A stretch of 15,759 bases of DNA from Candidatus Methanomethylicia archaeon (GCA_029259155.1 JAPDJI010000047.1:1-15759), one strand, 5' to 3'; counted from the first letter of the stretch, positions 138-14,756 are shown. Notes: generated by a model not told the origin, from the letters alone. Numbers and translations are program-made.

Positions 138-695
138 TTAAGCCTTAGCCTCAATCAACAACGGTTCAAGCACAGCTAGCACTCTATTGACGCTTTCCTC
201 CACGGATTCATGCTCGGTATCCACCGTCACCTCAGGGGTTAAAGGGGGCTCATAGGGATCGTCCAGCCCCGTCATGTGTTTAACCTCACCGGCTAAAGCT
301 TTCCTATAGAGGCCTTTAGGATCCCTCTTCATACAGGTCTCTAGACTACATTTAACGTAAACCTCAATGAACCTTAACCCCTCCTCCTCCACGATGGATC
401 GAACCTCCCCTCTAACATCACGGTAAGGCGACACAAAGCTGCAAAGCACCACCACACCGTTCCTAGCGAGCAGGCGAGCTACCCAAGCCACCCTTAAGAG
501 ATGAACCCTACGCTGCTCCTTCGTAAAACCTGCATCGGGGTTGATGGTTCTCCTAACCCAGTCCCCGTCAAGCAGCTCCACCCTAAAACCCTTTGAACGA
601 AGGTCTTCAGCCACCCTACTAGCCACCACAGTCTTACCGCTAGCTGGCAGTCCAGTAAACCAGACAACGGGTGCCCTATCCAAGATTAATGTCAA
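138..695 (-). CDS. cysC: Adenylyl-sulfate (APS) kinase
   Basis: P-loop WFTGLPASGKT, LLDGD, SFVSPY, RDPKGLY and TGLDDPYEPP are characteristic APS kinase motifs; TTG start. Confidence 0.96.
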   Translation of the reverse strand: MTLILDRAPVVWFTGLPASGKTVVASRVAEDLRSKGFRVELLDGDWVRRTINPDAGFTKEQRRVHLLRVAWVARLLARNGVVVLCSFVSPYRDVRGEVRSIVEEEGLRFIEVYVKCSLETCMKRDPKGLYRKALAGEVKHMTGLDDPYEPPLTPEVTVDTEHESVEESVNRVLAVLEPLLIEAKA

Positions 696-727
696 GCCTA
701 GGCCCCAATAACCTTAACCTAGACCCA

Positions 728-764
728 CCTTAAAGCTTGACGACTACGACAGGAAAGCTTAAAT
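728..764. promoter_or_regulatory. Back-to-back archaeal BRE/TATA promoters for cysC (-) and the tauE-RHH-sat operon (+)
   Basis: Plus strand GGAAAG-CTTAAAT at 752-764, about 40 nt before the tauE start. Minus strand CAAG-CTTTAAGG at 739-728, about 33 nt before the cysC start. Confidence 0.55.
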
Positions 765-781
765 CCAAGTTGCGGCGGCCG

Positions 782-800
782 ATTTAATTACATTTAATTA
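782..800. repeat. Tandem direct repeat ATTTAATTA x2 (10-bp period), candidate operator
   Basis: ATTTAATTA at 782-790 and 792-800, immediately before the tauE start in otherwise ~50% GC sequence. The repeat is seen directly; the operator role is inference. Confidence 0.45.
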
Positions 801-803
801 AAA

Positions 804-1583
804 GTGATGTTAATGGGGTTAGAGCCCGCTGTTGCTCTGCTCGGGGTCTTCGTAGGCCTACTAGTTGGCTCGCTTGGGGTCGGTGGAGGAGCCATAACCA
901 CTCCTACCCTAATCCTGCTGGGCGTAGCCCCCATCAACGCTGTGGGCACCGACCTCCTTTTCGTTCTTCCCTCAAAGCTGTTCGCCACCTTGCTGTATCA
1001 TCGAAGAGGCGAGGTGGACGTAACAAGCATTAAGAAACTGTTGATGGGTGGAATCCCCGCCATAATCTTATCCTACATCCTACTTGTCACTTACATGAGA
1101 GGCGTAGGGATCGAAGGCGTCAACAACGCGATTAGGCTTCTATTAGGCGTCCTTCTCATAGCTGTCTCCTTCACCCACTTAGCCAAGATAGTCCTTGAAA
1201 AAGAAGCGGCTAAACACCATAACCTTCCTCCCTTAAGCCTAGAACTAGTAGGCTTCATTGCCAGCGCCCTCCTATTCTTCACCTCTGTGGGGAGCGGGGT
1301 GATAGTTATGGCAGTTCTTCTTCACCTCTTTTCCTCCTCTCCTAGAAAGGCTGTTGGAACCACTCTTGCCTACAGCTTAACCGTCACCTCCATCACAACC
1401 GTCTTCTACGCAGGCCTAGAAGCTATAGATCTAAGGCTAACTGCAATCCTGCTTCTAACCGGCCTGCCAGGGATCTACCTGGGCTTCAAGGCTATCAAAG
1501 CGGTCCCTAGAAAACCTCTCATTGCTATGGTAGCTGTGAGCATTCTCCTCCTCGGGTCTTCACTACTGTTCCTTGGAGGTTAA
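804..1583 (+). CDS. TauE/SafE (TSUP) family sulfite exporter-like permease
   Basis: About 8 hydrophobic segments with internal duplication of the family motifs GSLGVGGGAITTPTL...AVGTDL and TSVGSGVIVM...AVGTTL. Start may be GTG 804, ATG 807 or ATG 813. Confidence 0.9.
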   Translation: MMLMGLEPAVALLGVFVGLLVGSLGVGGGAITTPTLILLGVAPINAVGTDLLFVLPSKLFATLLYHRRGEVDVTSIKKLLMGGIPAIILSYILLVTYMRGVGIEGVNNAIRLLLGVLLIAVSFTHLAKIVLEKEAAKHHNLPPLSLELVGFIASALLFFTSVGSGVIVMAVLLHLFSSSPRKAVGTTLAYSLTVTSITTVFYAGLEAIDLRLTAILLLTGLPGIYLGFKAIKAVPRKPLIAMVAVSILLLGSSLLFLGG

Positions 1584-1620
1584 GGACCATGTATAGACAA
1601 ACTTTTATGAGGTGGTGGCG

Positions 1621-1875
1621 ATGAAGGTCACAGGTCAAACCGACATGAACGATGAGAGGAAAGGGAGATACACCACGGTGTCCATACCCGTCGTCCTCTA
1701 CAATAAGATAAAGGAGCTGATCAGAGACACAGGCTTCACCAGCGTATCTCAGTACGTCGCTTATATACTGAGAGAGGTCGTCGCTGCACACGAGGAAGCT
1801 AAGATGGCTGAACCCTTCACTGAAGAGGATAAGAGAAGGATCATCGATAGGCTGAGGAAGCTAGGTTACCTATGA
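1621..1875 (+). CDS. Ribbon-helix-helix (CopG-like) protein with acidic C-terminal tail ending RLRKLGYL
   Basis: YTTVSIPVVLYNKIKELIRDTGFTSVSQYVAYILRE fits the RHH pattern. GAGGTGG RBS at 1609-1615 favours ATG 1621 (ATG 1645 is an alternative). Stop is 1 nt before the sat start. Confidence 0.85.
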   Translation: MKVTGQTDMNDERKGRYTTVSIPVVLYNKIKELIRDTGFTSVSQYVAYILREVVAAHEEAKMAEPFTEEDKRRIIDRLRKLGYL

Positions 1876-1876
1876 G

Positions 1877-3034
1877 GTGGTAAACGTGGTGTCTAGGCCT
1901 CACGGAGGACGCCTCATTAACCGAGCTGTCACAGGCCGCAGGAAAGAAGCCTTAATCGAAGAGGCAAGCCAGCTACCTAAGGTGGAAGTCACCTTCGAGA
2001 CGGCCGTAGACATAGAAAACATAGCCTACGGGGTGTTAAGCCCTCTTGAAGGCTTCCTAAACCAGGAAGACTACCTACACGTGCTTCAGGACATGAGGCT
2101 GAGCAACGACACCCCTTGGACCATACCTATAACGCTCGACGTAGACCCTGAGGAGGTGGCAGGCGTCGAGGAAGGAGACGACTTAACATTAACTTACCTC
2201 GGCAAGCCGTTGGCCATAGTGAAGGTGGAGGAGATCTACGGCTGGGACAAGAAGGAACACGCCTCAAAGATCTACAAAACCTTAGACCCAGCCCACCCAG
2301 GCGTCGAGGAGACTTTTCGACGCAAGGAGCTCTTCATAGCTGGCCCTCTAGACCTGATAGGCGAGGTACCCAACCCCTACGAAAAATACACCTTACGCCC
2401 CATAGAAACCAGGATACTCTTCCGCGAGAAAGGCTGGAGGTCCATAGCAGCCTTCCAGACACGCAACGCCCCTCACCGAGGCCACGAATATGTCCAGAAA
2501 GCAGCCCTCACCTTCGTCGACGGACTCTTCATAAACCCGCTCATAGGTAGGAAGAAGCGAGGTGACTTCAAAGACCAAGTAATCCTAGAGGCTTACGAAG
2601 CTCTCATCAAGCACTACTACCCTAAGGAGGTCGTCGTCTTAGCCATACTGAGGACGGAGATGCGCTACGCAGGGCCTCGCGAAGCCATACACCACGCCAT
2701 TATGAGGAAGAACTTTGGCTGCACCCACTTCATCATCGGCAGGGACCATGCAGGTGTGGGGAACTACTACGGCCCCTACGAGGCCTGGGAGATCTTCAAG
2801 GAGTTCCCCGACCTAGGAATAACTCCGCTTTTCATAAGGGAAGCCTTTTACTGTAAGCGCTGCGACGACATGGTAAACGAAAAAATCTGTCCGCATAGCG
2901 ACCGGGATAGGCTTTACATGAGCGGGACCAAGATAAGAGAGCTACTTTCAAGAGGAGAAAGCCCTCCAGAGTACATGATGAGGCCTGAGGTTGCAGAGGC
3001 CATACTGAGACACGGATCCCCCTTCATAGAGTGA
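1877..3034 (+). CDS. sat: Sulfate adenylyltransferase (ATP sulfurylase, Sat type)
   Basis: PHGG, SPLEGF, FQTRNAPHRGHE, MRYAGPREA, GRDHAGVG, zinc site CKRC-x8-CPH, SGTKIR, MRPEV. Confidence 0.97.
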   Translation: MVNVVSRPHGGRLINRAVTGRRKEALIEEASQLPKVEVTFETAVDIENIAYGVLSPLEGFLNQEDYLHVLQDMRLSNDTPWTIPITLDVDPEEVAGVEEGDDLTLTYLGKPLAIVKVEEIYGWDKKEHASKIYKTLDPAHPGVEETFRRKELFIAGPLDLIGEVPNPYEKYTLRPIETRILFREKGWRSIAAFQTRNAPHRGHEYVQKAALTFVDGLFINPLIGRKKRGDFKDQVILEAYEALIKHYYPKEVVVLAILRTEMRYAGPREAIHHAIMRKNFGCTHFIIGRDHAGVGNYYGPYEAWEIFKEFPDLGITPLFIREAFYCKRCDDMVNEKICPHSDRDRLYMSGTKIRELLSRGESPPEYMMRPEVAEAILRHGSPFIE

Positions 3035-3040
3035 AAAGCC

Positions 3041-4384
3041 ATGAGGAAGCTGCTCGTTATAGGCCTAGACTCAGCGCCTCCCTCCATCCTCTACGACCAG
3101 AAAACACTGAACGAGCTACCCAACCTAGCCAGCCTCATAGGAGACGCCGCGAGGTACGAGCTAGTCAGCTGCCACCCGCCCATAACCATCCCGGCCTGGG
3201 CAGTCATGGTAACCGGCAAAACGCCAGGCGAACTGGGGCTCTACGGTTTTCGCCACCGTAAACCGGGGAGTTATACCGAGATTTACATAGCAAGCTCCCA
3301 TAGCGTAAAGGATCCTACCCTATGGGACTTCGTAGCTAAGAAAGGCGGTGAAAGTCTAGTCGTAGGTATACCTCCTTCCTATCCGCCAAAACCCTTGAAG
3401 GGATGGTTGATAACAGACTTCATGACCCCCAGCTCCGCTAAGCAGTACACGTGGCCTCCTGGCCTCAAACACGAGATAACAAGCCTATTCGGCGACTACG
3501 TATTCGACGCCGAGTTCAGGACACTCGATAGAGATAGGCTGGTGAAGGATCTATGGAACATGACTAAACAGCACTTCAAGGTTCTAAGACACCTCTTATC
3601 CAGCAAGCCTTGGAGCTTCGCCATGTTCGTTGAGATAGGCGTCGACAGGGTACAGCACGCTTTCTGGGGGTACATGGACCCCACCCACCGGAAATACCAG
3701 CCAGGCAACCCCTATGAACAAGTAGTCCGAAACTACTACAAGCTAATAGACGAAGAAATAGGAGAACTTCTGAAAACTATTCCGCGTGACGCCGTGATAA
3801 TCACGGTTTCAGACCATGGAGCTAAACCTATGAAAGGAGCCCTCTGCATTAATCAATGGCTAGCTGAGCAGGGATACCTAAAACTCGAGGAACAACCAGC
3901 CAATCCGGGCATCGATCTAGGTAAGCTCAAGGTAGACTGGTCGAAAACCATAGCGTGGGGGTGGGGAGGCTACTATGCTCGAATCTTCCTAAACGTAAAG
4001 GGGAGAGAGCCCAACGGAGTAATAGATCCAAGCGACTACGAATACTATAGAGACCTGTTGATCGAGGAGCTCAAACGCATAAAAGGCCCCAGCGGCGAAC
4101 CGTGGAACACCAAGGCCTACAGGCCTGAAGAGCTCTATCCAACATGTCGAGGCGACAAGCCAGACCTCATAGTCTACTTCGACAACCTATACTGGCGGAG
4201 CGCAGGAACCCTAGGCTGGCCTTCAAACTACCTACCTGAAAACGATACCGGCCCAGACGACGCCGTACACGACTGGATCGGCGTCTTCGCTATCAAGGAC
4301 CCTGAAAAAACAGTAAGCCAAGGAGACAAAGGAAGAATCCGCATAGAAGACTCCTTCAACCAAATGAAATCATTCATAACCTAA
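3041..4384 (+). CDS. AlkP-superfamily phosphodiesterase/nucleotide pyrophosphatase-like protein (COG3379-like), cytoplasmic
   Basis: Metal and nucleophile motifs IGLDS, PPITIPAW (Thr nucleophile), DRVQH, SDHG and a C-terminal H (AVHD). No signal peptide. Starts 6 nt after sat. Confidence 0.88.
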   Translation: MRKLLVIGLDSAPPSILYDQKTLNELPNLASLIGDAARYELVSCHPPITIPAWAVMVTGKTPGELGLYGFRHRKPGSYTEIYIASSHSVKDPTLWDFVAKKGGESLVVGIPPSYPPKPLKGWLITDFMTPSSAKQYTWPPGLKHEITSLFGDYVFDAEFRTLDRDRLVKDLWNMTKQHFKVLRHLLSSKPWSFAMFVEIGVDRVQHAFWGYMDPTHRKYQPGNPYEQVVRNYYKLIDEEIGELLKTIPRDAVIITVSDHGAKPMKGALCINQWLAEQGYLKLEEQPANPGIDLGKLKVDWSKTIAWGWGGYYARIFLNVKGREPNGVIDPSDYEYYRDLLIEELKRIKGPSGEPWNTKAYRPEELYPTCRGDKPDLIVYFDNLYWRSAGTLGWPSNYLPENDTGPDDAVHDWIGVFAIKDPEKTVSQGDKGRIRIEDSFNQMKSFIT

Positions 4385-4878: not shown

Positions 4879-5211
4879 TTACAGGAGCTTTACCCAATAT
4901 GTTGAGGCGTCTTGAACAACGATGCTCCTCCTCTTAGCCTCCTCAAACTCTACAGGCGTATAGGCCAGGATCTCAAAGGATACGTCCCTCGGGGCCAGAG
5001 CTCTAACCATAGCGATCCTCTTAGCCAGCTCGACCCCCTCGAAATCATCGGACACCACTATTAAGTCCACATCACTATCCTCGAGCCAATCACCCTTAGC
5101 GTAACTCCCATAAAGATAGACCTCTACGCCCCTATACCTTCGCGCAACATTCTCGAGTAGGACGTTTATAGCTCGCTTGACCCTCTCAGGCAGGTTTAAG
5201 TTTTCTCTCAA
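4879..5211 (-). CDS. Minimal nucleotidyltransferase (MNT) antitoxin, copy 1
   Basis: YLYGSYAKGDWLEDSDVDLIVV matches GS-x10-DxD; overlaps the end of the upstream HEPN gene. Confidence 0.92.
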   Translation of the reverse strand: MRENLNLPERVKRAINVLLENVARRYRGVEVYLYGSYAKGDWLEDSDVDLIVVSDDFEGVELAKRIAMVRALAPRDVSFEILAYTPVEFEEAKRRSIVVQDASTYWVKLL

Positions 5212-5584
5212 CAGCTTTAACTACCCCTTCAGCTATGCTTACCGCCCTCTCAGCTTGGACACGCCCAATACTTAGCGAAGGCCTTCTCAAACCTGCATTC
5301 GGGTACCTAGCAAGCACGTAGTAAGCTGAAAGCTCACTTAGCCCCTGGCTAACCTCCTTAGGCAGTTCAAGTAAACCCTCGACTTCACCGTAAAGCACTG
5401 TAAGATCATATACGTGAGGCGGCCTCTTCCTAAGCAACCCTATCATAAAGGCTTTGAAACCTTTCTCAGCGGCCTGCTGAGCTATGAAACAAGCCCAATT
5501 AAAGCTCCCTGCACGTAAAGCTTCCCTGGCATGTTTCAGGTCTGCTAGAGCCTCCTCGAGCCAATCGTAGGCCTCAGCTCTAAC
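5186..5584 (-). CDS. HEPN domain protein (COG2250-like), copy 1; no canonical N-terminal start, possibly a pseudogene
   Basis: The frame stays open upstream of the ORF-track ATG (5446): VRAEAYDWLEEALADLKHAREALRAGSFNWACFIAQQAAEKGFKAF-MIG..., containing the conserved AQQAAEK and later YYVLARYPNA. In-frame stop at 5611-5609, with no ATG/GTG/TTG in frame between there and 5446. Confidence 0.8.
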   Translation of the reverse strand, partial: VRAEAYDWLEEALADLKHAREALRAGSFNWACFIAQQAAEKGFKAFMIGLLRKRPPHVYDLTVLYGEVEGLLELPKEVSQGLSELSAYYVLARYPNAGLRRPSLSIGRVQAERAVSIAEGVVKAVERKLKPA

Positions 5585-5982: not shown

Positions 5983-6306
5983 CTATGCGATGCGCCTCCA
6001 GTACTTAGAAGCATCGATGAGAACGGCACTTCTTCCCACTTTCTCCTTGAGCTCCTCTGGGGTTAACGGTATAACCTCTACGTGAGGCCTAACCTTCTCC
6101 TTCCACTGAACCTCCTCTACTAGCTCAAGCCTCTCCATGAAAGACATTTCCTTAAAGCCCCTTGAAACCACCACCAAGTCCACATCACTACTCCTCAGCC
6201 AATCACCCCTAACGCTACTGCCGAAGACATAGGCCTCCTCTACGCGTATTCTTCTTGATAAAGCTTCAAGGAGGCGCCTTACCGCTAGCTCAGCCTCCTG
6301 CCGCAT
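5983..6306 (-). CDS. Minimal nucleotidyltransferase (MNT) antitoxin, copy 2
   Basis: YVFGSSVRGDWLRSSDVDLVVVS (GS-x10-DxD); shares TPxE and DASxYW with copy 1; 22-nt overlap with its HEPN gene. Confidence 0.92.
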   Translation of the reverse strand: MRQEAELAVRRLLEALSRRIRVEEAYVFGSSVRGDWLRSSDVDLVVVSRGFKEMSFMERLELVEEVQWKEKVRPHVEVIPLTPEELKEKVGRSAVLIDASKYWRRIA

Positions 6307-6689
6307 TCCTCCACCACCCTCACAGCGATTTTAAAAGCTCTCCTAGCTTCCACCTCGTCGACCGACTCGCTAGGTAAGCCATTAGCCGCATCGGGGTAGC
6401 GCGTGACCGTATAATACTTGTTTAAAACGTATAGTTGGTCTTCAACCTCCTCCGGCAGGTGAAAACCAGCTTCCTTCAAACCTAAGTATAGCTCCGTGAC
6501 GGTATGTATCTTCGGAGGCTCCTCCCTCCTGACAGCGAAGTATAATGCTTTAAACACTTTTTCAACAGCCTGCTGGGCATAAAAAGCAGCCCTAAACCAC
6601 CTCCTCCTAGACAAGGCATCCTCTGCATCAACTAGATCCTCCTGAGCCGCCTTAAACCAAAGCAAAACTTCCCTACGCAAGCTGACCAA
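6285..6689 (-). CDS. HEPN domain protein (COG2250-like), copy 2
   Basis: W..A..DL..A, FYAQQAVEKVFKA, PPKIH, YYTVTRYPDA. Confidence 0.92.
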   Translation of the reverse strand: MVSLRREVLLWFKAAQEDLVDAEDALSRRRWFRAAFYAQQAVEKVFKALYFAVRREEPPKIHTVTELYLGLKEAGFHLPEEVEDQLYVLNKYYTVTRYPDAANGLPSESVDEVEARRAFKIAVRVVEECGRRLS

Positions 6690-6705
6690 GTCTAATGGGT
6701 GAAGG

Positions 6706-6716
6706 GATATAATAAG
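6706..6716 (-). promoter_or_regulatory. TATA box of HEPN-MNT pair 2 (probably leaderless transcript)
   Basis: CTTATTATATC on the minus strand, 17-27 nt upstream of TTG 6689. Confidence 0.5.
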
Positions 6717-7341
6717 CCTAACGAAAATACAAAGATGCGAGAGACCGCTGGAACCCTAAGGCGTTTTCCTAGTATTCCATGTTCTTAAAGCCACGTAGAG
6801 TAGGCGGCTACAGTCTTCAACGCAGGGATGGGCTGATAGGCCTAAAACACTTTAGATCATCACTTTGCGAAGGTTACGCATATAACGACACCGTGAACCG
6901 TATCGGCGAGCTCAAAGGCATTAAACCCATGCACCGTATTCGTTATGAAGCTGGTAGTAACCTTAACCCTCACCTATCCACAAGTAGACTCCTTACCTAT
7001 CTTAGCAAGACCTGAACAGTTAGCTGGGACAATAGCTTTCCACGCACCTAAAAGGTCGCTAAACCCAACGGATCTCCTAGGAGAAACAACTCTTCCCCGA
7101 TCACCCGATCACGTTAAGAATGATGTTTATCAGTGAACGTGACTGCATAGGAAGGTTGTTCAGAGAGCTCCTCATCAACCTAGCGCGCGCGGATATGCTG
7201 GACAGTGCCAACATTAGCAGCAAGACTGATGTTGAAGCTGTAAAGGTTGGTCGGACGCCGTGTCCTCTCTACTTCAAGGTAGAGAGACCTGAGATTAAAA
7301 ATGCTATCATATAAATTAGATAAAAACGGGGCTTAGGGGCT

Positions 7342-7836
7342 TTATCCGCTAACCACGTTGAAGCCTACCGTCTCATCCGCAGCGTAAGGAGCCCAATCGG
7401 CACCTATTACGCTTATCCAGCCGTTCCACACCATGGCCTTGGCCTTATAGGGACCTAGTGGTGCGTCCAGTGATAACATACCAGCTCCTGAATAGCTCTT
7501 AGTCTCCTCCTGGCTTATGGTGACCTCAGCGGAAGTCAAGATAATCATCCTGTCTGATGGGTCATCTATCCTTACGAGACCTAGGAAGGTTACAGTCGGA
7601 TCAGCGTCGTAGTTTAAGGGGAAGTTTACCGTAACTATGACGTTAACCATCTCCCCTCTTATGAAGCTGGTTTTGGAAGCGCCGCTGGTATCGGCTGTCC
7701 TAACGTCAGTTATCGTTAACCAGTATGAGTCCTGCGCGAGCACGACAGTAGTAGCACCAATCATTATTGCGAGCATTATCAACCCGAGTATAATTAACCC
7801 GCGTTTTCTAATGATAGTCGAGTTCAACTTCAGCAC
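7342..7836 (-). CDS. Secreted single Ig/MG-like beta-sandwich protein
   Basis: Signal peptide RKRGLIILGLIMLAIMIGATTVVLA|Q, then SFIRGEMVNV...DP...APLGPYKA...FNVV, a divergent version of the module in the neighbouring genes. No C-terminal anchor. Confidence 0.85.
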   Translation of the reverse strand: MLKLNSTIIRKRGLIILGLIMLAIMIGATTVVLAQDSYWLTITDVRTADTSGASKTSFIRGEMVNVIVTVNFPLNYDADPTVTFLGLVRIDDPSDRMIILTSAEVTISQEETKSYSGAGMLSLDAPLGPYKAKAMVWNGWISVIGADWAPYAADETVGFNVVSG

Positions 7837-7866
7837 CCTTGCTAGGCTTGTATCGCTATACTATGG

Positions 7867-7882
7867 TATATTAAGTTTTCCG
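7867..7882 (-). promoter_or_regulatory. Near-consensus BRE-TATA promoter for the 7342-7836 gene
   Basis: Minus strand CGGAAAAC-TTAATATA, 30 nt upstream of GTG 7836, with an A-rich tract further upstream. Confidence 0.65.
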
Positions 7883-7912
7883 CTACTGCGATTTAATTTT
7901 TAATTTCTCTCC

Positions 7913-8299
7913 TTAACCCTGCTCTGAGACGTTAAACAAAGCAGTAGAATAAGCTCCTCCTCCAGCTATATGAATTGTATAATTACCTGTGGGGACGTTA
8001 GTCGGGAGTGTAAAACTGCTTTGAAACTGTCCGTTTCTTACTTCTACTTGGTCAACCCAGATGATGATGTTTCCTGGGCCTCTCACCTCGATGCCTATTG
8101 GGCTTCCCTCAGGGATTCCTTCAACGCTACCAGTTATTGTCACAGCGTCGCCTGGATGATAGGAGGCTTTATCGGTTGATATATGTATAGCAACGTTGAT
8201 TGAAGGCTGCTGGCTCGGCGAAGGTATGGTCAAGTAGAGGACGAGGCCCGCCACGATCAACAAAACAATGATCGCGATGCCGACCGTCTCCAGCCTCAA
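7913..8299 (-). CDS. Membrane-anchored single MG2-like (macroglobulin/Ig-like) domain protein
   Basis: N-terminal hydrophobic helix VGIAIIVLLIVAGLVLYL with no basic n-region or AxA cleavage site, linker PSPSQQPS, then STDKASYHPGDAVTITG (TDKxxYxPG[DE]xV MG2-type signature)...WVDQV...GQFQSSFTLP...TGNYTI. Confidence 0.85.
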   Translation of the reverse strand: MRLETVGIAIIVLLIVAGLVLYLTIPSPSQQPSINVAIHISTDKASYHPGDAVTITGSVEGIPEGSPIGIEVRGPGNIIIWVDQVEVRNGQFQSSFTLPTNVPTGNYTIHIAGGGAYSTALFNVSEQG

Positions 8300-8330
8300 G
8301 ATAAATCCCGTCTACGGCTATCTTCTCTCT

Positions 8331-8372
8331 GAATATTTTAAATTTACGACGTCGAGGATACAATCTTATATA
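8331..8372. promoter_or_regulatory. Divergent promoter pair between the small MG genes and the large surface protein
   Basis: Plus strand CTTATATA at 8365-8372, 40 nt before TTG 8412. Minus strand TTTAAAATA at 8343-8335, about 35 nt before TTG 8299. Confidence 0.5.
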
Positions 8373-8411
8373 GGAAGAGTAAAGAGTAATCTTTCGCAAG
8401 GTGGAGAAGAG

Positions 8412-11400
8412 TTGAAATTGAGCAAGCTTTACTCTAGTGAAATAAAACGTTTCACCGCGCTTCTAATGATATTAATGATTACCTTTTCAACAACGGCTAT
8501 CTTAGTGGTTAAAGGTCAACAAACGGTCGTCACGGTTCAGACAGATGCAACAAGCTATACACTTGGAGAGTTAGTTACGGTTACAGGGATGGTTAGAAGC
8601 AACGGTAACCCCGTGGCAGGTGAACCTGTCGGTATCATGGTTTTAGGGCCCAACGAAGAGGTTATATGGGTAGATCAGGTAACCACCGACGAATCGGGAC
8701 AATACCTCTCAAGCTTTAGACTTCCACATACGGCACCTACAGGCACATATAACGTCAGCGTCTCTTCAGCCAACGTATTTAACTCGACGACTTTCCAAGT
8801 AACTGCTGGAACATACTCCATTACGGTGGACACTGATAGAGACGCCTACGTGGCTGGCGAGATGGTTACGGTAAACGGCTACGTATACATTGACGGCGTA
8901 GGCGTTCCAGGCGTGAGCGTAGGCATAATGGTGCTCGATCCTCAAAATAGGACCGTATGGGTAGACCAGGTCTCAACCGATGCTCAAGGCAGGTATGAGT
9001 CGTCCTTCAGGTTGCAGGATGGAGCGGCTACAGGCACGTATAACGTAACGGTCGCTTCTCTAGGCGCCTATGCAGAAACCACTTTCAATGTGGTCGAACC
9101 TACAAGGGTCAACGTAACCATATACGTCTACAATACTGCAACGGGCGACCCTATACCTAATGCTAGCGTTACGTTATGGGACCACTTTACGGCTCAATGG
9201 CTAAACGGCACGACGACAAACTCTACAGGCGTAGCGGTGATGGAGACGTGGGGGCACATACGCTTCGACGTGGTGGTCTATAAGACAGGCTACGGCACCG
9301 TGGTTGAAGGTAGACAGCAGGGCTACTTGGTAAGTGATAATAGTGGACAAGGCTACTTGGGCGAGCAGTACTTATCGTTCGGGCTTACCACTGTAGGTGT
9401 CGGAATACTCGAAGGCTACATTACCCAGGCGACTGACAACACCCCTCTCGAAAACGCCGAGGTAAGCATACTCTTCAAGCATAACGGTAAGCAATACTGG
9501 GCCAACTCGACGCGAACCGATAGTAGTGGACACTACTTCATTCGTGTGAACGTAGGGGAATGGAAAGTATGGGTAGACCGCAAGATATGGATCGACGAGA
9601 TCCAAGACTGGAGCTTAACTCACATGGGCACTTACTTCGAGATAGTTGTGTCCGCGGGAGGGTCGTTGACGAAGAGTATCGGGTTATGGCCAAGAGGCCT
9701 TGTAACCCTCAACAGCTTAACGGTCAGCGACGAGGGCTCCGTTACATCCTTCTACGTGCTTCTGGTAAACGACACCTATGGAGGCATGCTCTTCGTAGAC
9801 GAGTTGCTGGTGACAGAGCTACCTATCAATGTTACCATTCCGGCTATACAAGGCTGGCTAGTGGTCATAGCTCCTCCGCCCGCCTTCATGGTCTACAGCT
9901 ACTACCTAAACTGGAGCGACACCGACCCATCGAACCCCGTTAAGGTTAACGTGACACTAACCCGCTTCGAGCACCTGATATGGAGCTACCCAAGCGATGC
10001 GGAAAACGATAGGTTGCCGGGTCGCATGACTGTGGTTGTCCACGTTGAGTCCTACGAGATGATCGGTGGCGAACCAGCACCTACAGGGCCAGTAGACCCT
10101 GCTGAAGGCTCGAGTGTGGGGGTCTACACGATGATCGATAGAGGTTACGGAACCCCAACGATATGGAACAGCTACGGTGTAGCTATAAGGACAGGAGTAG
10201 GCGCCTTCTACCGAACCCTAGAACTTGGGGAAGCTGAGCCAGGCTACTACCCATGTATGGTAGCAGTCAGAAACGCTACAGGCCACTTCATAGATGTAGG
10301 CTACTTCTACTACAACATCTTCCCGTACCAGCTTCAGTGCATAGGGGCTAAAGGTAAATATCAGCCTAGCGAACACGTCGTCTTCAAGTTCCTCGTCTAC
10401 GGCAGCCAAGGCTATATCGATGACGCCAACGTACTATACACTGTATACGACGGACAATGGAGATTCGTGACAGGAGGCTACGCGTCGAGAGGGACCGAGA
10501 CCTTCGGTATACACAGCAGAACCGTCACAGCATATACGGTAAACATCACTGCGGGGACGCTAGACGTAGGCTACTACCACTTAATCGTTGATGTGGAGAA
10601 CGGTAAGGAGAGATCCTTCGACTTCTGGATCATCGATCATCCGACCGTGGCCTTCAAGGGTCATGTGATGAACTATACTATCTTAGACCTGTTCTCACCT
10701 GAGCATGGCAGCTACGTTATAATGGCTAACGCTACAGGCCACTTCGATACACGACTACCTGCAGGAACCTACTCAGCTTGGTTCCACTTCGACGATAAGG
10801 CCACGCCCGGCATAGACGCGCGCGACAACAGCATGACGTTGACGCTCGGCTCCGACGTATACTTCCCCATAGGCTTCCCTGAATACGAGTGGCGGCCTGT
10901 CGTACCTGCCTTCGAAGTTAACGGCACAGTCTTCCACGACGTTGATGGAGATGGAATTAGAGACCCAGGCGAACCGGTGATACCGGGGGTCAGTATAAGA
11001 GCTCAAAGCTCAAGAGGCGTTGAAGTCGAGTGGCGAATGTCGGAGCCTGACGGCTCCTTCGCGATGCTCTTGGCGACAGGGGACATATATAGGATCATAG
11101 CTGGGATAGGCACCTACTGGCAACGCACTGTCCCAGAGGTAGGTTTAGGGCTAAGTGCAGGCGATCTCATTAGCATCGACGTTCCCTTAGAGAGGTTAGC
11201 TTCAGGCATCATAACAGGCTACGTCATGTTGGACAACGGCACGCTTCTAACCACTGCTCAACTACACTTCATGGACAGGTTCTGGACGTGGCTGGGTAGC
11301 GCTTCAACGAACAGCACTGGAGGCTACTACTTTGAGGCGCCCGCTGACACGACGCTTAACATATGGGTCGACCCAGGCGTCCCAGGCGTCATGGGCAAGC

Positions 11401-13616
11401 CGATAACAGACGTGACGGTAGGCGTAAACGCGACGCTGGTACTAAACATCACCCTCTACAGGTCCTGTAGGGTTACTGGACAAGCAAATACCCAGGTTCA
11501 GATATTGCTGCTCGACGAAAATCTCACACGTGTCTGGTGGGATATGTGGTCGGACTACGATGGATCCTTTGACCTCGAAGTACCCGTCAACGTCAGATAC
11601 ATCCTCCTATGGGCCTGGAACTACGTCCCGGCCAACGTCACCGTCGACCTGTCAGCTGGTGGCACAGTAGATTTAGGCACCATAACGTTAACTGAGTGCA
11701 GCGACCAAGTAGACATAAACATCCATCCTAGAGGATGGGAGTGGACATGGATGGTGGGAGAAACCGTAGACTTCATAACGGAGCTGTACGAGGTGACAAC
11801 ATGGGAGCCGCTCCAAAACGCTTATATCAAGTTCTGGGTCTGGTACTGGGATAACGGCACGCTGATTCGCCAAGGCTTCTTAAACGAGACCACTCCGGGG
11901 GTCTATGAAGGAAACTTCACGGCTCCTTACAGCGGCCACTACAGAGTGATTGTCAACGCCAGCATACCAGCGTTGGGCAACGTCTGGTATACTGCTTCAG
12001 ACTTCTGGGTGAGCGCCTCGGATAAACGGCTATATCTCATAAACGCTAGCGGAGACTATGCTTTAAGCGATGTACAGGCTGGTGGAGCCGCCATCTACGT
12101 AACCTTAAACAGCACGACAACAGGCTCCGGCGTAGAAAACTACCCTGTATGGTTCGAGGTGAGGAGCTTCGACCCAGATACATGGTACATGGAGACGGTG
12201 TATCCGAGAACCGCCGCTGAGGACCTTGGTGGAGGGCTATACAAGGTTACCATTCCATCGACCCTAAGCGCTGGGAGCTACACGGTTGACATCTACGCTG
12301 GCGAGTGGGAGACCTCGACTCAAGCCTTCTTCAGGATAGTTGAAACCCCGCTTGACAGAGCCGGCATCTATGGCTGGGTAACCAGAAGCCCGGAGCCTGT
12401 GAGAGGCGCGATCGTGGAGGCATGGGTTGAAGGACTACCATACCTATACGTTACCAGGACCGATCCGAGCGGCTTCTATAACCTGAGCGTACCTGTCATG
12501 CAGGCTTACCACGTCCACGTATACTTCGACAACGCGACGACCAGTGGACTAGACTATACGAGCATACCTGAATGGAGAAGGGTTGAGGTGAGGCTGCTCA
12601 ACGTGCTCAACAACGTGACCCTAGCAAGGACGGAGCTCGTAGAGCTCGTAATCGTCGATCAGAACGACAACCCGGTACCGGCGGACGTATTGGTCTGGGA
12701 TAGGACGAGCACCCCGGTCAGGCTAGTGATGTGGGCGTACACGTGGAAAGGGCCAGGACTATTCTCGGAGAAACTGAAGGAAGGACTCTACACGTTCGAA
12801 ATACGCCCCATAGAGAGCTGGAGCTTCGGCTACTTCTTCAAGCCGGCTACCGCTATAAGCGCAGATCCTCCAACTCCTGATAGATTCGAGGTGACAATGC
12901 CCTACACTGACTTATGGAGCGACTGGCAGATCATCTCAGTATGGGGCGACGTAGACCCGTGGAGAGCTAAGCCAGGTGAGAGCATCACGATAAGCATACC
13001 ATTAAGCATGCTTCAAGGACTAGCCGACGACCCAGCCGACTACCTAGCAAACCACACCACCAACTTCCTCGAAGTATTCAGGTGGGTCCCAGGCACCATG
13101 CCTGAGGGGTACATGTTCAACATTACTTCATGGGAGCTCGTACAGGGCGAGGAAGGTTCAGAGGACACCCTGCGCACCACGTTCAACATACCTTCAAACT
13201 TCGACGCAGGCGACTACGGCATAAGGATATATTTCATCGACGAGGCGCAGAAGATCTTAGTCTCAGCGGAGATGGGCTTCCTCATAGCTGAGGTGGACAT
13301 AGGCTTCGCCGTGGTCCCATGGACTGTCGAGCGCGGAGGCAACGTCATGGCAGCTGTCCTAATACTCGGAGACCAGGGACCCGTCACTGGAGCTGACGTG
13401 GCCATCGAGGTATACAACGAGACATGGAGCCTCGTCTCCGTCATACCCGCTAGCGAGGTTGCTGCTGGGATATACGCTGCCAACTACACGGTGCCTGCTA
13501 ACTACGGTGCTGGGTGGTGGACGATGAAGGCCATCGTTACAATAGAAGGCAGAGAAGCTGTGGCTTACCAGGGCTTCTACGTCTCAGGCGGTGAAGGCGA
13601 AGGTTATCCGCTTTAA
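8412..13616 (+). CDS. Large (~1734 aa) secreted multidomain surface glycoprotein with MG-like, carboxypeptidase-regulatory/Cna-B-like and SdrD-B-like modules
   Basis: Start moved from the ORF-track 8268 to TTG 8412 (GGTGGAG RBS, upstream TATA, removes the overlap with the divergent gene). Signal peptide KRFTALLMILMITFSTTAILVVKG. Repeated GxIxGxV...TxxxGxY modules and NGTVFHDVDGDGIRDPGEPVIPGV. About 37 N-x-S/T sequons by hand count. No C-terminal TM. Confidence 0.9.
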   Translation: MKLSKLYSSEIKRFTALLMILMITFSTTAILVVKGQQTVVTVQTDATSYTLGELVTVTGMVRSNGNPVAGEPVGIMVLGPNEEVIWVDQVTTDESGQYLSSFRLPHTAPTGTYNVSVSSANVFNSTTFQVTAGTYSITVDTDRDAYVAGEMVTVNGYVYIDGVGVPGVSVGIMVLDPQNRTVWVDQVSTDAQGRYESSFRLQDGAATGTYNVTVASLGAYAETTFNVVEPTRVNVTIYVYNTATGDPIPNASVTLWDHFTAQWLNGTTTNSTGVAVMETWGHIRFDVVVYKTGYGTVVEGRQQGYLVSDNSGQGYLGEQYLSFGLTTVGVGILEGYITQATDNTPLENAEVSILFKHNGKQYWANSTRTDSSGHYFIRVNVGEWKVWVDRKIWIDEIQDWSLTHMGTYFEIVVSAGGSLTKSIGLWPRGLVTLNSLTVSDEGSVTSFYVLLVNDTYGGMLFVDELLVTELPINVTIPAIQGWLVVIAPPPAFMVYSYYLNWSDTDPSNPVKVNVTLTRFEHLIWSYPSDAENDRLPGRMTVVVHVESYEMIGGEPAPTGPVDPAEGSSVGVYTMIDRGYGTPTIWNSYGVAIRTGVGAFYRTLELGEAEPGYYPCMVAVRNATGHFIDVGYFYYNIFPYQLQCIGAKGKYQPSEHVVFKFLVYGSQGYIDDANVLYTVYDGQWRFVTGGYASRGTETFGIHSRTVTAYTVNITAGTLDVGYYHLIVDVENGKERSFDFWIIDHPTVAFKGHVMNYTILDLFSPEHGSYVIMANATGHFDTRLPAGTYSAWFHFDDKATPGIDARDNSMTLTLGSDVYFPIGFPEYEWRPVVPAFEVNGTVFHDVDGDGIRDPGEPVIPGVSIRAQSSRGVEVEWRMSEPDGSFAMLLATGDIYRIIAGIGTYWQRTVPEVGLGLSAGDLISIDVPLERLASGIITGYVMLDNGTLLTTAQLHFMDRFWTWLGSASTNSTGGYYFEAPADTTLNIWVDPGVPGVMGKPITDVTVGVNATLVLNITLYRSCRVTGQANTQVQILLLDENLTRVWWDMWSDYDGSFDLEVPVNVRYILLWAWNYVPANVTVDLSAGGTVDLGTITLTECSDQVDINIHPRGWEWTWMVGETVDFITELYEVTTWEPLQNAYIKFWVWYWDNGTLIRQGFLNETTPGVYEGNFTAPYSGHYRVIVNASIPALGNVWYTASDFWVSASDKRLYLINASGDYALSDVQAGGAAIYVTLNSTTTGSGVENYPVWFEVRSFDPDTWYMETVYPRTAAEDLGGGLYKVTIPSTLSAGSYTVDIYAGEWETSTQAFFRIVETPLDRAGIYGWVTRSPEPVRGAIVEAWVEGLPYLYVTRTDPSGFYNLSVPVMQAYHVHVYFDNATTSGLDYTSIPEWRRVEVRLLNVLNNVTLARTELVELVIVDQNDNPVPADVLVWDRTSTPVRLVMWAYTWKGPGLFSEKLKEGLYTFEIRPIESWSFGYFFKPATAISADPPTPDRFEVTMPYTDLWSDWQIISVWGDVDPWRAKPGESITISIPLSMLQGLADDPADYLANHTTNFLEVFRWVPGTMPEGYMFNITSWELVQGEEGSEDTLRTTFNIPSNFDAGDYGIRIYFIDEAQKILVSAEMGFLIAEVDIGFAVVPWTVERGGNVMAAVLILGDQGPVTGADVAIEVYNETWSLVSVIPASEVAAGIYAANYTVPANYGAGWWTMKAIVTIEGREAVAYQGFYVSGGEGEGYPL
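8529..9095 (+). repeat. Two tandem 97-aa (291-nt period) MG-like modules
   Basis: TVQTDATSYTLGELVTVTG..VGIMVLGP..WVDQVTTD..GQYLSSFRL..TGTYNV vs TVDTDRDAYVAGEMVTVNG..VGIMVLDP..WVDQVSTD..GRYESSFRL..TGTYNV. Confidence 0.9.
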
Positions 13617-13632
13617 GCCACCATAAGAACCC

Positions 13633-13667
13633 TTTTATATTTTATATCCCTCTTAATTTCTTTTTAA
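13633..13667 (+). terminator. T-rich archaeal terminator after the large surface gene, possibly also the TATA for the radical SAM gene
   Basis: TTTTATATTTTTATAT...TTAATTTCTTTTTAA starting about 16 nt after the stop. Confidence 0.5.
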
Positions 13668-13679
13668 TCTACGCGAGGT

Positions 13680-14756
13680 TTGAACAGCATGGGGGTGAGC
13701 GTTAACCTCAACGCTGCCAAGGCCTTACTGAAGAACGCTCTTCGCCCAGGCATCGTTAAGGTCAACATAGCGGTGACCTACGCGTGTAATTATAGATGTA
13801 AAACCTGCAACATCTGGCGTTTATACCTGGACAAACCTGAGCTGAAATCCATGGAGCTCTCCTATAAGGAACACGAAGAACTCTATAGGGAAAACCGTGA
13901 TGTCGTTTGGCTGAGCTTTACTGGCGGCGAACCATTTCTTAGAGAAGACTTCGATGACATAGTTACCTCAGCGGTGGAAAACATCCGTGGATTAAAGCTT
14001 ATCAACGTAGCCACCAACGGATCCATGCCCGTGAAGGTTGAACGCCTCGTTGAAAAAGTTCTAAGCGCGCGCCCTGACCTCTTACTCTTCGTCGAGGTGA
14101 GCTTAGATGGCTGCGAAAAGCTACATAACTATGTGAGAGGTTTTCCTCAAGCCTATCGAAACTCCCTTGAAACCTTTAGGAGGTTGCGCAGGTTAAAAGC
14201 GGAGGGATTAAACGTCAGGTTCGAGTATACATTGTCTAGGTTCAACGCGGGCTTACTCAGGAAGCTCCTAGAAGACCTTAATAGCCAAGGCCTACATGTC
14301 TCCGTGGATGACTTCGTGGTCACCTTGGCTCATAACTCACCTTACTACAACAACGAGGAGATGGGCAGTATAGCTCCTCCTATGGATAAAGCTATTGATG
14401 AGCTCTCATGGATCTCCAGCAAGCTCTCTAAGCGAAGCTTACTTAACTTGGTGCCCTTAATTTACCTTAAGCTTAGCTCAAGGTTCTTTAAGGGCTGGAG
14501 GCCTCCATGCGTGGCTGGATCACACTCATGTTTCATAGATCCTTTCGGCAGGGTCTACCCATGCATAACGGTTAGGTACGAGCTCGCGGACCTGAGGAGG
14601 GACGGCTTTAACTTAAAGCAAGCTTTCTCGGGCCCTAGAGCCAGGTTTTTCAGGGAGAACCTCAGGCCTAGGTGTCCAACCTGCTGGACCCCCTGTGAAG
14701 CTTATCAAAGCATCGTGTTTAAACCATTAGGTTTCCTTCCATACCTTCTCAGTTAA
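13680..14756 (+). CDS. Radical SAM protein with C-terminal SPASM/twitch domain
   Basis: CNYRCKTC (CxxxCxxC), FTGGEPFLR, TNG, SLDG; C-terminal CVAG...IDPFGRVYPC...CPTCWTPC. GAGGT RBS before TTG (ATG 13689 is an alternative start). Confidence 0.93.
   Translation: MNSMGVSVNLNAAKALLKNALRPGIVKVNIAVTYACNYRCKTCNIWRLYLDKPELKSMELSYKEHEELYRENRDVVWLSFTGGEPFLREDFDDIVTSAVENIRGLKLINVATNGSMPVKVERLVEKVLSARPDLLLFVEVSLDGCEKLHNYVRGFPQAYRNSLETFRRLRRLKAEGLNVRFEYTLSRFNAGLLRKLLEDLNSQGLHVSVDDFVVTLAHNSPYYNNEEMGSIAPPMDKAIDELSWISSKLSKRSLLNLVPLIYLKLSSRFFKGWRPPCVAGSHSCFIDPFGRVYPCITVRYELADLRRDGFNLKQAFSGPRARFFRENLRPRCPTCWTPCEAYQSIVFKPLGFLPYLLS

Follow-up and report, generated by a model that had tools for sequence, protein, structure and literature searches.

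A three-gene locus of MG2-type surface proteins in a Candidatus Methanomethylicia archaeon: a possible lineage-specific copy of a Thermoproteota envelope cassette

The window analysed here is the whole of one contig (C25, JAPDJI010000047.1:1-15759; 15,759 bases) from a 1.55-Mb, 94% complete genome bin of a hot-sediment archaeon (GCA_029259155.1, Candidatus Methanomethylicia archaeon). It carries three neighbouring genes for proteins of 164, 128 and 1,734 amino acids (aa), called here P0001, P0002 and the giant, which appear to share one kind of immunoglobulin (Ig)-like module, the MG2 domain. Tentatively, we explain this trio by an envelope cassette of MG2-type Ig-like modules that is conserved in Thermoproteota and is present here as a rearranged copy specific to the lineage; the products of this copy would form an accessory surface complex with the giant held via its MG2 head. 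All three open reading frames (ORFs) were confirmed, at 7342-7836 (minus strand, 164 aa), 7913-8299 (minus strand, 128 aa) and 8268-13616 (plus strand, the giant ORF).

The MG2 domain (PF01835, Pfam gathering threshold 32.8 bits) was found in P0002 at 39 bits and in the giant at 108.3 bits across two stretches. P0002 is identical to repeat 1 of the giant at 38 of 92 positions (41%, BLASTP E 5e-18) and to repeat 2 at 36 of 94 (38%, E 2e-13). A sequence-only reading of this DNA had described the 128-aa protein as a parallel of the two N-terminal repeats of the giant, and these are indeed MG2 paralogues; the motif quoted in that reading corresponds to the invariant columns (T, D, Y, P, G, G, Y, F) of an alignment of nine MG2 modules (A2). 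P0001 matched 0 Pfam families, and its best pairwise matches were not significant (E 0.05 against the giant, 1.4 against P0002). Comparison by hhalign of a profile of its family (A1, eight sequences) with A2 gave a probability of 95.3% and E 2.4e-8 over 87 columns. The AlphaFold2 (AF2) model of P0001 (predicted local distance difference test, pLDDT, 76.5) has a long N-terminal helix followed by a beta-sandwich, whose matches in Foldseek and VIA-align are tied among Ig-like domains: GH2 (Z 13.1), the carbohydrate-binding domain of Wzt (Z 11.8) and MG2 of complement C3 (Z 11.4), the last with the highest identity (17%). By profile and by model, P0001 appears to consist of an N-terminal hydrophobic helix and a beta-sandwich remotely like MG2, and its earlier description as a more divergent copy of the module agrees with the profile-profile match, in contrast to the absence of any Pfam match or significant pairwise match. 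Strong MG2 is present in only 3 of the 1,904 ORFs of at least 100 aa in the genome, namely in those for the giant and for P0002 and in one for a 901-aa protein on contig C36. Since two of these three are divergent neighbours, the sharing of the module is not due to chance. Besides MG2, the giant has Pfam matches to bMG3, to SdrD_B and, in five stretches, to CarboxypepD_reg. A tiled scan of the giant gave further beta-sandwich matches only and no enzyme domain, and NCBIfam models run on the three proteins gave nothing beyond a sub-threshold transthyretin-type match in the giant. The giant is a chain of beta-sandwich domains with two MG2 modules at its head.

Genes of the same three kinds lie together in other genomes of the phylum. 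We scanned 25 loci with a stand-alone member of the P0001 family, each with 1.5 kilobases of flank on either side, using hidden Markov models (HMMs) built in this analysis. A separate MG2 ORF was present in 24/25 loci, the sole miss being interrupted by a contig end, although five genomes of these loci contributed sequences to the MG2 HMM and are not independent tests. A polytopic membrane protein of about 570 aa (family A4/A6, GT-C-type) was found in 11/25 loci and a small MG2 ORF (<200 aa) in 7/25. The order in loci L091 and L092, from another class, is membrane protein, N-anchored MG2 protein of 155-160 aa, P0001-type protein of 165-171 aa and MG2-headed protein of 428-437 aa; L089, L090, L093, L094 and L095 show variants of it. 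On its strand the window keeps the relatives' order of P0002 then P0001, with the large MG2-headed gene divergent rather than downstream. The earlier expectation of a syntenic trio thus held for the kinds of gene but not for the exact trio with the giant, which was found only in its own population and, in part, in one partial homologue. In loci L060, L065, L066, L067, L082 and L085, the 164-aa-type domain forms the C-terminus of an upstream ORF of >600 aa, with an MG2-headed ORF directly after it; judging from these ORFs, 164-aa-type and MG2 modules also exist in a fused or tandem large-protein form.

In relatives, the large cassette protein begins with a signal peptide and an MG2 head; it also has a poly-Pro linker, Ig-like domains and, in some lineages, a coiled coil, and it ends with a C-terminal transmembrane (TM) helix and a basic tail. 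The C-terminal TM helix was found in 5/5 complete relatives of the class and in 7/7 from other classes (12/12). The giant is about four times longer than these counterparts (about 430 aa) and is without a C-terminal anchor. A profile of the about 430-aa cassette proteins (A5, six sequences) had as its best match in the PDB the SlaB protein of S. acidocaldarius (8qox_B), at E 1.4e-6, a score that may be inflated by coiled-coil composition. In this alignment the MG2 head corresponds to SlaB residues 17-120, and the coiled coil and TM helix to residues 387-473. A2 alone matched the same chain at E 0.0098, behind chains of macroglobulins, complement C3 and thioester-containing proteins (TEPs) and ahead of any other protein. 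The term 'non-SlaAB', applied to the locus in the sequence-only reading, is inaccurate, because the MG2 module is related to the SlaB N-terminal domain and the large protein of the cassette is SlaB-like.

The membrane protein of the cassette matched no Pfam or NCBIfam family, and its neighbours by language model are GT-C families. Its AF2 model, built from an 11-sequence alignment (pLDDT 77.3, predicted TM-score 0.84), gave Foldseek matches to STT3, PglB, ArnT and AglB (E 2.9e-6 to 1.5e-3) and also to AftD, DPY19 and ALG12. The family alignment has invariant columns, for example D218 and R250. Searches of PDB sequences with the profiles of the P0001 family and of the GT-C-type family gave nothing significant. 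The modelled fold points to an STT3/PglB-like GT-C transmembrane region, and the protein is a predicted glycosyltransferase.

The giant probably starts at TTG 8412, with GGTGGAG upstream, which yields 1,734 aa, the same length as its database copy (P0005). P0001 would have 161 aa if it started at TTG 7827, as in its database copy (P0004). The features of the locus are listed below by position in the window.

7342..7836, minus strand: P0001, the 164-aa gene; N-terminal hydrophobic helix at about residues 14-35, ending VLA/QD, then a divergent MG2-like beta-sandwich
7837..7912, minus strand: spacer of 76 base pairs (bp) that separates the 128-aa gene from the 164-aa gene and contains a TATA-like A/T stretch (from sequence)
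7913..8299, minus strand: P0002, the 128-aa gene; hydrophobic residues 1-30 (hydropathy), linker PSPSQQPS and a single MG2 at residues 36-127
8300..8411, no strand assigned: divergent intergenic region of 112 bp, with two A/T-rich TATA-like stretches and GGTGGAG before TTG (from sequence)
8412..13616, plus strand: the giant, 1,734 aa; hydrophobic residues 13-36, no C-terminal TM helix, 37 NxS/T sequons, isoelectric point 4.4, 4 Cys
8523..8807, plus strand: MG2 module 1 of the giant (Pfam, BLASTP, A2 HMM i-E 1e-30)
8814..9107, plus strand: MG2 module 2 of the giant (Pfam, BLASTP, A2 HMM i-E 7e-32)
9111..9575, plus strand: bMG3-like stretch of the giant, then its first CarboxypepD_reg-like beta-sandwich (Pfam and tiled scan)
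10926..11456, plus strand: SdrD_B-like and CarboxypepD_reg-like beta-sandwiches of the giant (Pfam and tiled scan)
12120..12542, plus strand: weak MG2-like stretch (A2 HMM i-E 0.0032) and CarboxypepD_reg-like domain of the giant
13365..13550, plus strand: weak C-terminal MG2-like stretch of the giant (Pfam E 1.2e-4, below cut-off)

With TTG 8412 as the probable start of the giant, its start codon and that of the 128-aa gene lie on opposite strands, 112 bp apart. This spacer is predicted to act as a promoter region, and the 76-bp spacer is possibly a separate promoter for the 164-aa gene. The trio had been described as transcribed from one divergent promoter region. This is accurate only in part, because the 128-aa gene and the giant share the divergent spacer but the 164-aa gene, 76 bp on, has a TATA-like stretch of its own. 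A scan for sigma-70 promoters and intrinsic terminators gave counts equal to the shuffle expectation, and its consensus is inapplicable to archaea. No DNA repeat >31 nucleotides (nt) was found between the small genes and the giant, and there is therefore no sign of recent gene conversion.

Each of the three proteins has exactly one hydrophobic segment, at its N-terminus, and the giant has none elsewhere. The claims that the giant is without a C-terminal TM helix and without a PGF/PEF-CTERM-like tail were both confirmed: its C-terminus reads ...VSGGEGEGYPL, and the archaeosortase PF09721 was not found in the 94%-complete genome. The 37 sequons of the giant compare with 10.9 +/- 3.1 expected from 2,000 shuffles. 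It ranks fifth in sequon density among the 1,018 ORFs of at least 200 aa, and it is the largest ORF of the genome. In the giant, ...VVKG/QQTVVTVQTD stands at the position of the A-x-A sites of relatives, just before the first MG2 strand. The ...VLA/QD of P0001 resembles ...ASA/QS of family members in other classes, and P0002 has a Pro/Ser linker and no such A-x-A-type site. From these N-termini we infer that the giant and P0001 are cleaved and that the helix of P0002 is retained. Ahead of their TM helix, the N-anchored cassette members of L040-L045 and L091-L095 have a common cytoplasmic motif, ...REIVIE(I/L)...KRL, carried by the small MG2 protein in some lineages and by the 164-aa-family protein in others; P0002 is without it.

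No full-length homologue of the giant was found among the 40 relatives searched, where all matches fall within its residues 45-344, the MG2 head. A large protein database held one partial homologue with 59% identity (source label 'Thermoprotei archaeon') and one with 23%. The P0001 family was found in 7/40 relatives by single-sequence search and, with the family profile, in 15/61 other genomes of the class and 33/400 other genomes of the phylum. Among 1.84 billion cluster representatives it had 228 matches at E<=1e-3, 90 at E<=1e-10 and 11 at E<=1e-30, mostly stand-alone proteins of 140-200 aa; a word-indexed homologue search with P0001 returned only its own 98%-identical copy. A metagenome scan with the giant gave one identical contig only (7,948 nt), and the locus is nearly unchanged on contigs of four other metagenome runs. 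A 9,049-nt contig spans positions 6700-13315 of the window (6,616 bases) with 18 differences, and a contig from another run covers 8452-13876 (5,425 bases) with 13. Several samples thus carry the complete trio, and the locus is not hypervariable. In low-depth contigs of runs X2 and X5, 165-170 bases are missing from the C-terminal part of the giant (13116/13121 to 13287); this may mark an in-frame deletion variant from a related strain or result from the assembly of a repeat.

Cassette parts of this genome are scattered on three contigs, C24, C25 (the window) and C36. On C24 (4051-7948, locus L046), a 554-aa membrane protein of the cassette family with a GT-C fold is the neighbour of a P0001-family remnant of 92 aa; the genome may therefore contain another copy of the cassette that has decayed or been split. 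The best match to the SlaB-like profile in this genome is the 901-aa protein on C36 (E 2.5e-49); it is MG2-headed and has a C-terminal TM helix and the tail ...KAKK. A separate canonical STT3/AglB is encoded on contig C8. Contig C3 (3040-7869, locus L068) encodes a protein of 1,609 aa that starts with a signal peptide, contains 40 sequons, ends with a C-terminal TM helix and the basic tail ...VVRA, and gives almost no Pfam signal; homologues of it, from ORFs of about 1,400-1,520 aa, are present in 16/40 relatives belonging to five families.

In the model that we propose, all three proteins of the trio would be exported by Sec. P0002 would stay in the membrane as a short N-anchored stub, and P0001 and the giant would be released from their signal peptides, the giant also being N-glycosylated. 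The MG2 head of the giant may then be held at the surface by the small MG2-type proteins, by the C-anchored 901-aa protein of contig C36, or by both. The trio would act as an accessory surface complex, with the 1,609-aa protein of contig C3 more likely to be the main S-layer. In Sulfolobus, according to PMC12207459 and PMC10903991, SlaB and Saci1846 hold the anchorless SlaA, with which their N-terminal Ig-like domains are predicted to be in contact, and the proposed tether would be parallel to this arrangement. We propose a tether through the MG2 head because this head is the sole part common to all cassette members, and because of the analogy with SlaA and SlaB; by that analogy the tethering idea is plausible. 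Complex prediction of the P0002 MG2 and the P0001 ectodomain with the two-MG2 head of the giant scored 0.00 in both runs, which were made with no controls, and is evidence neither way.

A broader proposal, to which we give only a small chance, would extend this to the whole phylum. The cassette would have four parts: a GT-C transferase that resembles STT3 but has no large external domain, an MG2 protein with an N-terminal anchor, an MG2-like protein that is exported, and an MG2-headed stalk of SlaB type. It would build or glycosylate the tie between outer protein layer and membrane in Thermoproteota outside Sulfolobales. In the present genome, an anchorless, canopy-like glycoprotein of 1,734 aa on small anchors would replace the stalk. 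If this were true, a division of labour of the SlaA/SlaB type would have evolved from SlaB-type modules alone.

Several observations weigh against our explanation of the trio as an accessory cassette copy with a tethered giant. The large protein of relatives anchors itself, so the conserved linkage does not by itself imply tethering, and the 20-residue N-terminal hydrophobic segment of the giant could stay uncleaved and anchor the giant itself. In a tree of the short MG2 domain, P0002 groups with the giant's own modules (support 89/76, not strong) rather than with the small N-anchored MG2 proteins known from other genomes; its orthology to the latter is for this reason unproven, and it may be a local duplicate. 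The GT-C partner is not on the window contig but on C24, beside the 92-aa remnant. The trio with the anchorless giant was found only in the population of this organism and, in part, in the 59%-identical partial homologue. In the closest relatives (three genomes of the same family and 11 of the same order) the P0001 family had no match. Near-identical copies of the locus were found in DNA runs only and in no RNA run.

The grouping of P0002 with the modules of the giant is what local duplication predicts, and it would also fit a history in which the three proteins are paralogous adhesins or decorations that arose by duplication of one module, act independently and are neighbours by descent. Multi-Ig surface proteins are common in these genomes, and the giant is lineage-specific, as such a history would have it. 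We nevertheless consider it rather unlikely, because the P0001 family stands beside MG2-headed genes in 24/25 loci from several classes of the phylum, and duplication alone is unlikely to keep such an arrangement. A different role for the same proteins would be in a glycan-handling system, in which the GT-C protein transfers a lipid-linked glycan, the MG2-type proteins are its substrates or glycan-binding subunits, and only the protein parts remain together here. The predicted GT-C fold of the cassette membrane protein is in line with this. Several cassettes are flanked by sugar-pathway-like ORFs, which were assigned by eye, on no more than their first residues, to GT2, GT4, UDP-GlcNAc 2-epimerase-like and nucleotidyltransferase genes, and the window contig has a PMT_2 GT-C gene (14775 to the contig end) and genes for synthesis of 3'-phosphoadenosine 5'-phosphosulfate (PAPS). 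The P0001 model matches the carbohydrate-binding domain of Wzt with a TM-score of 0.55-0.62, but this match is tied with those to many other Ig-like domains. As the GT-C partner lies on another contig in this genome, and the PMT_2 fragment of the window shows no relation to the cassette GT-C family by hhalign, a glycan-handling system is an unlikely explanation of the trio.

The trio could also be the main S-layer itself, with the giant as a SlaA-like canopy and the small proteins as its membrane anchors. The giant shares the features given for SlaA in PMC10903991 (>1,400 aa, a signal-type N-terminus, no TM helix, a beta-rich chain, many sequons, the largest ORF), and its module is related to the SlaB N-terminal domain. 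We regard this as distinctly unlikely. A phmmer search of all PDB chain sequences with the giant gave 0 matches at E<=0.1 and hence none to SlaA, whose presence there as 7ZCX is taken from papers. The giant lacks full-length homologues in the 40 relatives and the 1,609-aa protein of contig C3 has them in 16/40, which is why we read the trio as an accessory envelope module. The main S-layer of the lineage is more likely the 1,609-aa protein, because of this conservation and because it fits the C-anchored, Ig-rich S-layer proteins that are proposed across Thermoproteota in a preprint (bioRxiv 10.64898/2026.08.21.746120). As MG2 is a domain of alpha-2-macroglobulins, complement C3 and TEPs, a module for conflict or self-recognition, VARTIG-like or complement-like, was also considered. 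VARTIG loci, as outlined in PMC8416519, likewise pair a large Ig/TEP-like protein with small partial homologues, but the small genes here match the N-terminal and not the C-terminal part of the giant. The giant has no C[GL]EQ thioester motif, no TED or A2M Pfam domain and only 4 Cys, and it is not a protease-trapping macroglobulin because it lacks the thioester motif and the TED domain. There are no long DNA repeats able to drive cassette exchange, and the 13 and 18 differences counted in the contigs of two other runs mean that the locus is intact and not hypervariable, which disfavours this, the weakest reading in our view and a very improbable one. Finally, P0001 could be a type IV pilin-like subunit with a class III signal peptide, a helix and an Ig-like head, and the locus a filament. 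Its N-terminus, ...RKRG/LIIL..., fits what we take to be the pattern of a prepilin-peptidase site, and its AF2 model has the long N-terminal helix and beta-sandwich. P0001-family members of relatives have no G/A at that position and have N-termini like those of signal anchors (REIVIEI..KRL followed by a TM helix) or A-x-A signal peptides, and no gene for a pilus ATPase, platform protein or peptidase lies within the window, so that a pilin is extremely improbable.

Other genes of the window lie on both sides of the trio. A PAPS-synthesis set at 138-4384 comprises an adenosine 5'-phosphosulfate (APS) kinase (138-695, minus strand), a TauE/SafE exporter (804-1583), an ATP sulfurylase (1877-3034) and a 'Phosphodiest' protein of the alkaline-phosphatase superfamily (3041-4384). 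ORFs like ATP sulfurylase, Phosphodiest and APS kinase, judged by their first residues, are also near the MG2 cassette in L040, L042 and L045, from another family of the class, and a DHH/DHHA1 protein, confirmed by Pfam in L040 only, lies between these sulfur-type ORFs in relatives. The sulfur genes near the cassette could reflect sulfated surface glycans or merely a retained gene order. Between the sulfur genes and the trio are two adjacent pairs of HEPN and minimal nucleotidyltransferase genes, toxin-antitoxin-like, at 4879-5446 and 5983-6689; a similar pair is present on contig C24 near the cassette GT-C gene. Directly downstream of the giant (13680-14756) is a radical SAM/SPASM enzyme with no specific NCBIfam family above cut-off, followed by the PMT_2-type GT-C membrane protein, which is incomplete at the contig end (15759).

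To our knowledge, how the layer is attached to the membrane in Thermoproteota is largely unknown outside Sulfolobales, Nitrososphaerota and Pyrobaculum. The gene set described here combines a stalk of SlaB type with two small MG2-type proteins and a GT-C enzyme, and it gives concrete candidates for this attachment or for a dedicated surface glycosylation. The P0001 family, with about 230 cluster representatives and no Pfam model, would gain its first functional context, and the anchorless giant would be a natural experiment in which a large cassette member lost its own anchor. If the trio were a set of mere paralogous surface decorations, the result would be an ordinary improvement of annotation. 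None of the single elements is new, since giant Ig-rich surface proteins, SlaB-like stalks and the MG2 domain itself are known; what appears to be new is the conserved four-part linkage. We found no description of the P0001 family linked to a small N-anchored MG2 protein, a SlaB-like protein and a GT-C protein in the literature searched, which took in text passages of PMC8416519, PMC5898192 and the 2026 preprint; the supplements of these three may list such families as arCOGs.

Among known systems, the alpha-2-macroglobulin, complement C3 and TEP proteins are related to the trio at the sequence level. The local MG2 is a member of their family, and A2 matched A2ML1, A2M, YfhM, complement C3 and TEP at E 1e-8 to 1e-5, but the thioester, TED, bait and receptor-binding domains were not found in the trio. 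VARTIG loci, which according to Makarova et al. 2021 (PMC8416519) are restricted to Thermococcales, have in common with the trio a large, signal-peptide-bearing protein with TEP-like Ig domains and small neighbours homologous to a part of it. Their small genes lie downstream and correspond to the hypervariable C-terminal Ig domain, whereas those of the window are homologous to the N-terminal head, have an upstream and divergent position, and belong to a locus that is not hypervariable. The PySLP-type S-layer proteins of Thermoproteota, according to bioRxiv 10.64898/2026.08.21.746120, have a beta-hairpin close to the membrane, a C-terminal TM helix and a basic tail with Lys as its last residue. 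Like the giant, for which export is predicted, the 'colossal' proteins of this type are very large exported chains of many Ig-like domains from hyperthermophilic Thermoproteota. The giant differs from them in having no C-terminal TM helix and in ending ...GEGYPL, and the contig C3 protein has the TM helix and basic tail but ends in ...VVRA and not in Lys.

The archaellum protein FlaF (ArlF) is presented in PMC4425475 as a small monotopic protein that has a single TM helix at its N-terminus, followed by an extracellular beta-sandwich, and that binds a large S-layer protein. The working principle proposed for P0002 would be the same; this is a likeness of design, put forward with no claim of homology, and no archaellum genes are nearby. 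The closest comparison is that with SlaA and SlaB of Sulfolobales (7ZCX, 8QOX). The about 430-aa cassette proteins of other genomes are collinear with SlaB, from the signal peptide and MG2-like head through the Ig domains and coiled coil to the TM helix. The giant and P0002, in contrast, have no C-terminal TM helix, no coiled-coil-type region was seen by eye in the giant sequence, and the likeness to SlaB is confined to the MG2 head, which resembles its first domain. In its predicted architecture the trio would be comparable to SlaA and SlaB, with the gene for a large, anchorless, beta-rich and sequon-rich protein beside those for smaller, putative Ig-domain anchors. The anchors of the window would be N-anchored, single-domain stubs without a coiled coil, and the canopy-like and the anchor-like protein carry the same module.

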